From the NCBI GenBank assembly GCA_951406725.2, contig OX597826.1, positions 51,026,001 through 51,090,000 of the forward strand: DNA of 64,000 bases, in the 5' to 3' direction. The notes beneath the pieces are model-generated. The model did not search any database. It was not told the DNA's origin and saw nothing but the letters and a program-made list of their open reading frames with translations. Made by a program: the position numbers and the translations under genes. Origin of the DNA: Octopus vulgaris. Its lineage: Eukaryota. Positions 12,423 through 57,289 of the stretch are shown piece after piece (position 1 is the stretch's first letter; each line of letters begins with the position of its first letter).

Positions 12423-12599
12423 CTGTGCCCGTCTGGCACCTGTGCCCGTCTGGCACCTGTGCCCGTCTGGCACCTGTGCCCGTCTGGCACCTGTGCCCGT
12501 CTGGCACCTGTGCCCGTCTGGCACCTGTGCCCGTCTGGCACCTGTGCCCGTCTGGCACCTGTGCCCGTCTGGCACCTGTGCCCGTCTGGCACCTGTGCC
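12423..12599. repeat. 17-bp perfect tandem repeat, ~10.4 copies (CTGTGCCCGTCTGGCAC)
   Basis: Read directly; runs into a family A element. Confidence 0.95.
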
Positions 12600-15336: not shown

Positions 15337-15420
15337 TAAGGGTAAAGAATTATTAATTTAATAATTAATAAATTTTACCAAGTAGTAGGAACTTTTACAA
15401 AAATTTTTTTTATATATGAA

Positions 15421-15579
15421 TATAATTAACGGTTAAGCAACAAGTTGCTTCACCACATGCCGAAAATTTAGAAACAGCAGCCAAAGACAGCTCATTCCTT
15501 TATACTACAGATATTACTCCACATATATATGTGGAGTCGGTATGTGGTGAAGCAACTTGTTGCTTAACCCTTAATTATA
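15421..15579. repeat. ~43-bp inverted repeat element bounded by TA runs
   Basis: TATAATTAACGGTTAAGCAACAAGTTGCTTCACCACATGCCGA (15421-15463) versus its complement at 15537-15579. Confidence 0.8.
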
Positions 15580-15586
15580 TATATAT

Positions 15587-16031
15587 AAATAATACATTTC
15601 TAAATATCTCAGAGAGATTTATGCAGTAGTGGTATGATAAAGTAGTTGTATATTGTCAACTTAATGTGGTAGTCCCATGAAGGGAATCATACTACTGCAT
15701 AAATCTCTCTGAGATATTTAGAAATGTATTATTTCTATTTTTGTAATCAGTGGATTTATTTCACTAGAATTCTTATATGTTTGCAAAGGATAGATGGGCA
15801 TCTCCAACTAGAGGGCCATGCTACTCCAGACTGATGATGAGCAAAGACTCAGAAACTAGTCTCTGGATGCAGGCTTAGCTGGGTGGGGGTGCTTATCTCC
15901 CCCTTGCAAACATAAGGACACAGGAAATGTGTCAAGGCCAACAGGAAGCGTTGCTGCTTCCTAGGGCTAAATAGCAGTAGTATGATTGCCTTCATGGGAC
16001 TGTCACATTAAGTTGACAATATACAACTACT
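15587..16031 (+). mobile_element. Penelope-like non-autonomous element with two inverted duplications and a hammerhead motif
   Basis: 15587-15630 is inverted at 15691-15734 and 15641-15698 is inverted at 15973-16031; flanked by (TA)n; hammerhead at 15825-15867. Confidence 0.65.
15825..15867 (+). ncRNA. minimal type I hammerhead ribozyme
   Basis: Stem I TCCAGA/TCTGGA; CTGATGA at 15831-15837; stem II TGAG-caaaga-CTCA; GAAA at 15852-15855; palindromic ACTAGT in place of stem III; GTC cleavage triplet ending at 15861. Confidence 0.85.
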
Positions 16032-16099
16032 ATATATATATATATATTCACTGATAGGCTTCTACCCAGTTTCCATCTACCATATACACTCACAAGGCT

Positions 16100-55508: not shown

Positions 55509-56656
55509 AACAACAAACAAGATGAGGACAAATATCCGTCAAATGTAAATAATGTACATAATTCCTCATCTCTTAAATATAGAACTGTACACAAACTTAA
55601 TACACAAACTATACACAAATTAAGTTTACTGTTAGATTTTGAAATATCTCTGAATTAACTCCTACACCCGCTGGGTGAGGTTTATACCAGTCTATCGGTT
55701 AATTATGGTAAACTTCAGAATTGGAAGGATAGGGTAAGGGTCTGTTTGGCAACAAGTAACTCAAAGAAAATGAGATATTTCTGAAAATAAATCCAATATA
55801 AATACGATTGATGGACAAGAAAGGAAAAAATATCCATATTGTGGGGGCAAGTTTTTATTTAATTAATTTGATTGATAACATTGACTACCATGATATGACC
55901 AGGGGCACAAGACACAAATTAATTATTATTGTGTGACTGGAGTTGGGATTCTTCAATCACCCTCAACTTCTTTCATCATTATAAACTATTCATTGAATTA
56001 TTGTAGTCTATTCATTAACTTATCATAACCTATCTATTTGCCTTATATCTTATTTTATTAGATTATTATAGCCTATTTATTAACCTCTTATAGCCTATTC
56101 ATGAACCTATTGTGACCTATTTATTAGCCCTGTAATAGCCTACTCATTGGTTTATCATAGTCTATTCATTAGTTTATTATATCCTATTTATTAGGTCATA
56201 GAAGCCCCTATTTATTTGCCTATTATAACCTACTTTTTAACCTATGTTGCTTATTCTTGCCTAATTATTGGGCCTTGTTTGTTTGTTTTTTTCATAAATA
56301 TTTTCAGGCATAGATTATAATTAATAAATGTGTAGCCTACTGTTTGCTTAAATAATAGATTATAATTAATAAATGTGTAGCCTACTGTTTGCTTAAATAA
56401 TCAGTTAATTATTGTCCCAATTAGAACAAATTTGATTGACTGAAACCTTGACCTCATTTTTCCATCTGGTTGAAAAGAGTTAGCAGATTGTTTCCTTGCT
56501 TTTAACAGGATTGCTTTAATTAAACACTTCTCTAATTTCTCTTGCAATTTTGAAATGTTCATTCATTCACACTGTGCTAATAATAATAATAATAATAATA
56601 ATATAGAATTCATTTAACATTTTCCTTTTCCCTATGTGAATATTCGCATAATCATA

Positions 56657-57003
56657 CTTTGAAAATATCTCTTTGCAGAGGAAAGCTTGTTTTGAAAAAT
56701 GTTTAGTTTTGAAATAGGTTAATGATTGATGAGTCTTTAGTCACTTTGAAAATATCTCTTTGCAGAGGAAAGCTTGTTTTGAAAAATGTTTAGTTTTAAA
56801 ATAGGTTAATGATTGATGAGTCTTTAGTCACTTTGAAAATATCTCTTTGCAGAGGAAAGATTGTTTTGAAAAATGTTTAGTTTTAAAATAGGTTAATGAT
56901 TGATGAGTCTTTAGTCACTTTGAAAATATCTCTTTGCAGAGGAAAGATTGTTTTGAAAAATGTTTAGTTTTAAAATAGGTTAATGATTGATGAGTCTTTA
57001 GTC
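56657..57003. repeat. 87-bp tandem repeat, 4 copies
   Basis: Units start at 56657, 56744, 56831 and 56918 and are near-identical. Confidence 0.95.
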
Positions 57004-57289
57004 GGAATATTGGTTTGTTGGCATGACTCAGCCTTTTTTAAAACTAAATGTTATCTTCATCATCTTTTTAAGTTCACCTTTTGGCATGCATACTTTGATT
57101 AGTTTCAAGGTGTATTTATTTATTTTTTAGATCTTTCTTTTGTCAATATTAATGGTGTGTTTTTAATTTGTCATCTGATTCTTATTTGACCATCTCTTTC
57201 ATGGATAAACTTGGAAAATACAATAGTTTTAATTCATTCAAATTCTTCTATATGTTTTTCTATTAAGCATCTACCACAATACAGTCTTC

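Follow-up and report, generated by a model that had tools for sequence, protein, structure and literature searches.

Within the 64,000-nucleotide stretch of Octopus vulgaris DNA analysed here (the window), a long hairpin bearing the nucleotides of a hammerhead ribozyme at its tip raises the question of whether its structure is maintained at the RNA level, as a preliminary description had proposed, or is an accident of DNA folding back on itself, and of what kind of element it belongs to. The core nucleotides were found where they had been reported (CTGATGA at 15831-37, GAAA at 15852-55 and GTC at 15859-61), as were the palindrome ACTAGT at 15855-60 and, as helix I, the 6 bp formed by TCCAGA (15825-30) with TCTGGA (15862-67). 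The two arms said to extend stem I outwards, starting at 15776 and ending at 15914, do pair, and G-U pairs do occur between them, although the stem, announced as about 55 bp long, consists of a 55-nt arm forming only 46 pairs, 7 of which are G-U. This 46-pair arm is tipped by a type I hammerhead core (15831-15861), having the CUGANGA, GAAA and UH elements, three helices and an open helix I. The core had also been called canonical, which holds for its unpaired nucleotides but not for helix II, whose first position is U15838-A15851 with the invariant G-C one pair further outward; G10.1-C11.1 does not directly flank the core, from which a variable position separates it on both sides.

Table 1. 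Features of the repeat copy in the window and locations of related elements (window positions, unless another sequence is named).
Feature	Position	Strand	Remarks
Forward repeat piece	15691..16031	+	341 of ~352 nt, spans predicted cut site
Right end of forward piece	16031	+	"short" preferred 3' end, unit position 170
Inverted, 5'-truncated second piece	15574..15698	-	unit positions 113-238, stops close to the "long" preferred 3' end; 5' inversion of PLE type
Inversion joint overlap	15691..15698	.	8-nt microhomology
(TA)n target tract, right end	16031..16047	.	sequence
Short TA tract, left side	15575-15590	.	sequence
5' strand of extended helix I arm	15776..15830	+	46 pairs, 7 G-U, with 15862-15914
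Equivalent of Tx1-like insertion site (unit 296-310)	15805..15819	+	empty in window copy
UAC internal loop preceding helix Ia, predicted tertiary element of loop 1	15822..15824	+	U at least 90% conserved across families
Core CUGAUGA	15831..15837	+	sequence
Helix II	15838..15851	+	U15838.A15851 variable (C.A in most copies), G15839-C15850 invariant, two more pairs
Helix II loop CAAAGA	within 15838..15851	+	final A invariant
GAAA, palindromic helix III ACUAGU and GUC	15852..15861	+	predicted cut 3' of C15861
3' strand of helix I and arm	15862..15914	+	U15868 (U1.7) at least 90% conserved across families
Tx1-like element copies	L139-L168, e.g. L106:1449-3118 = G000:C13:22356948-22358617		
Young PLE family	L104:5377-7494 and L169-L198		RT + GIY-YIG, two 3' ends at (TA)n

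When both strands were folded, the + strand was the more stable, as had been anticipated, with an MFE of -66.8 kcal/mol (z -7.12) matched by none of 200 shuffles, against -51.5 kcal/mol (z -3.85) for the - strand. The MFE structure of the monomer, in which C15831 pairs (p 0.95) with G15859, is not the active fold; the monomer's hammerhead fold lies 7.9 kcal/mol above it, whereas a dimer fold formed through the palindrome lies only about 2.4 kcal/mol above two MFE monomers. An Rfam search returned no hammerhead in the window feature, either at the gathering threshold or at E<=10; the miRNA-like Rfam matches obtained correspond to the inversion hairpin and were rejected as miRNAs.

Copies were sought in the whole genome (2.8 Gb in 227 contigs), where a 171-nt query yielded 1,939 first-look candidates, the best being 91-95% identical, and exact core matches for two subfamilies numbered 86 and 216. 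A relaxed pattern of the variant core, which admits a single additional base at either side of helix II, gave at least 1,347 matches genome-wide compared with 0 for the reversed control, and the canonical core pattern gave 292 (control 9), the two patterns being unequal in tightness so that the ratio of 1,347 to 292 is only rough. The core is kept among the collected copies, its apparent conservation being inflated by their pattern-based selection, and the extended pairing covaries.

In 42 copies from several families, picked by us from 79 representatives, hammerhead helices I-III show more covariation than any of 500 shuffles or any slid control, with 88.5% of cells paired (72.7% when shuffled) and a covariation of 0.569, compared with at most 0.148 for slid alignments. 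Both-sided changes occur in all 6 helix I pairs, in the middle helix II pair and in the second helix III pair of these copies, in which the G-C at the base of helix II (42/42) and A15.1-U16.1 are invariant. The long arm behaves similarly: among 27 arms from several families, compensatory change is found in 17 of 33 consensus pairs, and G-C/A-U swaps also occur inside the family of the window copy (p 3e-6 and 8e-4, values not corrected for descent). The sense strand is the more stable one in 83 of 91 arms. The feature in the window is real and conserved, and the maintenance of structure at the RNA level is supported. As to the wobble pairing first put forward, in family copies 4 of the 7 arm G-U pairs are G-U in the majority, one is so in a minority (17/73) and two rarely (6/66 and 4/82), and the argument from the window copy is weaker than stated, as three of its seven wobbles are not family-typical. 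The rod-like ribozyme RNA that had been envisaged is only partly borne out: the arm is part of a unit of about 350 nt, predicted to fold into one long arm and a branched domain, and the window copy is a dispersed, retroposed repeat.

These results also bear on the idea of a DNA foldback or MITE-like hairpin carrying a hammerhead motif by chance, to which the richness of the locus in inverted repeats lends itself. The flanking inverted repeats are, however, accounted for by the 5' inversion described below, the strand asymmetry of the arms tells against such a hairpin, and the control counts (1,347 core matches against 0), together with the covariation of hammerhead and arm, refute this reading, which we regard as extremely improbable.

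Conservation across families extends to U1.7, to the U of the UAC loop and to the final A of loop 2, which may take part in tertiary contacts as in the Schistosoma structure. The position pair next to the core is, by contrast with the invariant G-C beyond it, unpaired in 29 of the 42 copies, the first position of helix II being C.A in 69 of 111 family pieces; among 156 cores the pair is C.A in 82, U-A in 34, U.U in 25 and something else in 15. Decay of a CpG, by which CTCA would derive from a paired CTCG, was rejected as an explanation, C-G being present in only 2 of the 111 pieces; it is further countered by the A or T kept there in sister families and by the invariance of the outer G-C. The hammerhead HHR_Amex2 of the axolotl retrozyme Rtz_353, which has U.U at the helix II base, cleaves, and does so better as a dimer, according to PMC7229834, and a natural U10.1-U11.1 has been reported in PMC3088659; given this precedent, the octopus core with its offset G-C is a modest variant. 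A sister-family cluster was also seen at G000:C3:3.2-8.5 Mb, in which several copies have G.U at the helix II base and which includes a tandem pair (L138). As for helix III, its insert is a perfect palindrome in 135 of the 156 cores, with 7 different sequences (CTAG in 111), and this switching among palindromes fits a ribozyme acting as a dimer.

Mapping of 95 loci defined a circularly permuted, non-coding repeat unit of about 352 nt, with the piece exceeding one unit in 27 of them. Three natural cut-to-cut monomers, of 350, 341 and 339 nt (GC 0.39-0.41), have circular MFE z values of -6.3, -3.2 and -4.8 respectively (25 shuffles each), and their predicted fold comprises one long hammerhead-tipped arm and a branched domain. 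At 339-352 nt, the unit lies within the 150-450 bp of retrozyme units and has one type I hammerhead, a GC content below 50% and no ORF. Long tandem arrays, the usual form of retrozymes, were not seen among the copies, the biggest spans amounting to about 2.4-2.5 units (843 nt in L138 and 874 nt in L292). The repeat family is also present in contigs of public sequencing runs from six organisms. The contigs of 4 runs presumed to be of RNA cover the unit but were rejected as evidence for circles, the joints at which they appear to go back being equal to the genomic unit junction; those of 4 further runs show the family in four organisms.

Other hammerheads were noticed during these searches. L225-L244 hold several families of type I hammerheads with a canonical core, one of them in tandem pairs of about 300 nt, and no PLE ORF was found within 1.5 kb of them. 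Outside the genome, the variant pattern matched 2 stretches of viral contigs and 28 from metagenomes; helix I is plausible in 3 of these, and the remainder look like chance matches. The metagenome contigs L261, L267 and L270 hold candidate type I hammerheads in which helix II is likewise flanked by an extra base on both sides, and helix III is stable and UUCG-capped in L267 and L270.

The ends of the copies are informative as to how they were inserted. Free 3' ends are concentrated at two points of the unit, ~170 and ~229 (the "short" and "long" preferred ends), and a microsatellite adjoins 60 of 118 preferred 3' ends, compared with 6 of 56 free 5' ends and a background of 6.8%. A 5' inversion, with pieces of opposite orientation meeting 5' to 5', is present in 47 of the 95 loci, with no 3'-3' joint; a short outer end is combined with a long one in 23 cases, whereas both are long in 2 and both short in none. 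The copies display 5' truncation with an inverted copy, a tail at one end only and (TA)n targets, which are the marks of mobilisation by PLEs; the RT and GIY-YIG ORF of an autonomous PLE is absent, the repeat having no ORF at all.

The window locus is an ordinary old copy showing this same anatomy. Its nearest sampled relative is 96.2% identical (~4% diverged), and the median nearest-neighbour identity of 145 copies is 93.9%, by which the sampled families do not look currently active. With 0.97 of a unit and one core only, it is probably a dead-end relic, though its core is intact. A covariance model built from the 42 copies, the window copy included, found no second copy within the window, no ORF of 100 aa or more overlaps the window repeat, and tblastn of the PLE protein against the window gave no match. 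The neighbouring hairpin at 15395-15600 is a different dispersed repeat, for which there are 1,384 candidates and whose anatomy likewise includes inverted pieces and TA tracts, and a covariance model run on 5 of its copies detected no variant hammerhead. The window also contains a 17-nt tandem array of about 10 copies (12423-12592), an 87-nt tandem repeat (56569-57090) and about 14-16 scattered copies of a SINE-like repeat.

Taken together, the feature is a type I hammerhead motif in a dispersed, non-coding repeat of about 352 nt, which is most likely a non-LTR retrozyme retroposed in trans by a PLE. Copies exceeding one unit would give rise to multimeric transcripts, in which two cores may pair through the palindromic helix III and cleave 3' of GUC; ligation of the unit-length RNA would then yield a circle, by analogy with the retrozymes of coral, mussel and axolotl. 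The RT/GIY-YIG protein of a PLE might then prime on the repeat RNA where there are (TA)n tracts and continue copying through the ligated junction, frequent template switching yielding the inverted 5' piece.

The behaviour of copies at the predicted cut site was assessed in 58 pieces anchored independently of the core. The site is crossed unbroken in 43 of them and only one starts within 2 nt of it, so that no pile-up of 5' ends at the cut site was found in these 58 pieces. Pieces running through the site imply that the template was either a circle or an uncut multimer, and the data fit both; likewise, the absence of 5' ends there fits a circle and equally an RNA that never cuts. This second possibility, in which the fold is kept for another purpose such as RT binding or stability, or cuts negligibly, with copies made from uncut multimers, is further favoured by the mismatched helix II base of most copies, by the misfolding of the monomer, by the low activity of PLE-type hammerheads (PMC4209133) and by the 8 of 9 Xenopus constructs that were inactive in Li et al. 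2026. We nevertheless consider it unlikely, as the core, U1.7, G10.1-C11.1 and the final A of loop 2 are fixed and the helices covary across families that are about 25-30% diverged, the palindrome has been re-invented in 7 ways, and the axolotl hammerhead with U.U in the same place is described as cleaving (PMC7229834).

Retroposition in trans, the preferred reading, calls for a donor of the enzyme. The same genome harbours a young PLE with RT and GIY-YIG, having many intact copies that are 99% identical and frames of up to 784 aa, and a second PLE family at 73% identity to it was also observed. The young PLE shows the same signature as the repeat, with two 3' ends 38 nt apart, (TA)n adjoining them at all 30 loci and, within the flanks covered, a terminal piece in inverted orientation at 10 of the 30; no type I hammerhead was found in its tail. 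No sequence common to the repeat was found in the 3' regions of 4 PLE copies belonging to different families, or in 30 copies of one family. The PLE in L104 and three other PLE copies were rejected as the partner, their tails having neither the variant core nor homology to the repeat; with nothing in common with these four tails, the partner is inferred from its footprint. When the hammerhead loci were searched with the PLE protein by tblastn, 9 loci besides L104 gave matches; in the four of these that were looked at closely the PLE lies beside the repeat or is cut by it and shares no sequence with it; such PLE fragments were discarded as a link, since their frequency is about that expected from PLE abundance (an estimate, with 30,761 candidates).

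It might also be argued that the copies are 5'-truncated terminal repeats of an unfound autonomous PLE, given their PLE-like insertion anatomy, the extra nucleotide between A9 and G10.1 that is a hallmark of PLE hammerheads (PMC4209133) and the derivation of retrozymes from pLTRs reported in Li et al. 2026. This appears quite improbable to us: pieces run from the end of the unit back into its own start and have no ORF, and the PLE matches at the four closely checked hammerhead loci, out of 9, have no sequence in common with the repeat.

The retrozyme-like repeat is in turn a target of other elements. In some relatives LINE 3' ends lie at unit positions 295-306, and one such element, 1.67 kb long with a single zinc-knuckle ORF (ORF1-only, Tx1-like), has 397 candidates; 27 of its 30 best copies are tail-intact, and 21 of these 27 have a variant core 19-34 nt downstream. 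Other LINE ends stop at the same site, one of them with zf-RVT (L104), the Tx1 label being based on the zinc-knuckle ORF and one zf-RVT match, not on an RT tree. The Tx1-like insertions near cores lie in several divergent families, with differing apparent target duplications. In L148, the stretch preceding the Tx1-like element resembles what we take to be the 5' end of U1 snRNA, as in snRNA-LINE chimeras. Target-specific Tx1 families are known for other transposons, e.g., Tx1 in Tx1D and Tx1-Mar in Mariner-N4 (Kojima 2015, PMC4494074), and the octopus insertions likewise have a fixed site in another mobile repeat and apparent target duplications of ~13-19 bp; unlike those cases, the target here is a ribozyme repeat, which in the window copy is unoccupied.

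A bolder reading, possible though doubtful, would be that of a superfamily of circular-RNA parasites with a tuned core, having an extra nucleotide on either side of G10.1-C11.1 (mostly C.A), that Rfam missed here and that outnumbers the canonical pattern (1,347 against 292). PLE enzymes would copy it in trans although it has no PLE sequence, recognition then being by structure, and several site-specific LINE families would in turn use it as their fixed landing pad.

The offset G-C core of the octopus repeat also suggests that hammerhead surveys undercount in animal genomes. The mover of animal retrozymes is still an open question, PLEs having been proposed from co-occurrence and pLTR homology; the match between the octopus footprints and those of a young, intact PLE of the same genome offers independent support and a concrete RNA-protein pair.

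In the literature searched on retrozymes, hammerhead variants, Penelope, Tx1 and octopus, no description of the octopus family was found, and Lunse et al. 2017 may cover such cores. Among known systems, the animal non-LTR retrozymes of Cervera & de la Pena 2020 (PMC7229834) come closest, with which the repeat shares a type I hammerhead, a non-coding, low-GC unit of ~350 nt (mussel retrozymes being 350-390 bp), a weak palindromic helix III and a predicted circle that is highly self-paired. It resembles HHR_Amex2 from the same source in being mismatched at the helix II base, but with C.A as the commonest combination in place of U.U, and departs from these retrozymes in that the copies sampled are mostly dispersed, 5'-truncated or inverted single copies and not tandem arrays. 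The likeness is one of described features, ribozyme activity and RNA in the octopus being predictions.

PLE hammerheads are marked, in the part of Cervera & De la Pena 2014 (PMC4209133) that was available, by an extra base after A9, a conserved G10.1-C11.1 and a palindrome, and have low activity; the octopus motif also has the extra nucleotide between A9 and G10.1, the conserved pair and a palindromic 15.2-16.2, differing in a second extra nucleotide between C11.1 and G12. Unlike PLEs themselves, the repeat has neither an ORF nor homology to the 4 PLE 3' regions compared. The insertions of PLEs, which according to Craig et al. 2021 (PMC8557442) comprise partial tandems, an inverted 5' copy, a one-ended tail and (TA)n targets, are mirrored in the inverted 5' piece, one-ended tail and (TA)n targets of the octopus copies. 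Li, Clavereau, Pollet 2026 (bioRxiv 10.64898/2026.07.22.740005) derive retrozymes from pLTRs and argue for a PLE origin; of 9 predicted dimers of Xenopus retrozymes 1 cleaved, and the sample lacked molluscs. The Xenopus link is one of pLTR sequence homology, whereas the octopus one is of insertion anatomy with no homology detected, and both sets of elements co-occur with PLEs and exist as dispersed monomers. The octopus repeat is best placed among the animal non-LTR retrozymes, as a new member whose core departs slightly from the canonical one and whose insertion footprints are of PLE type.
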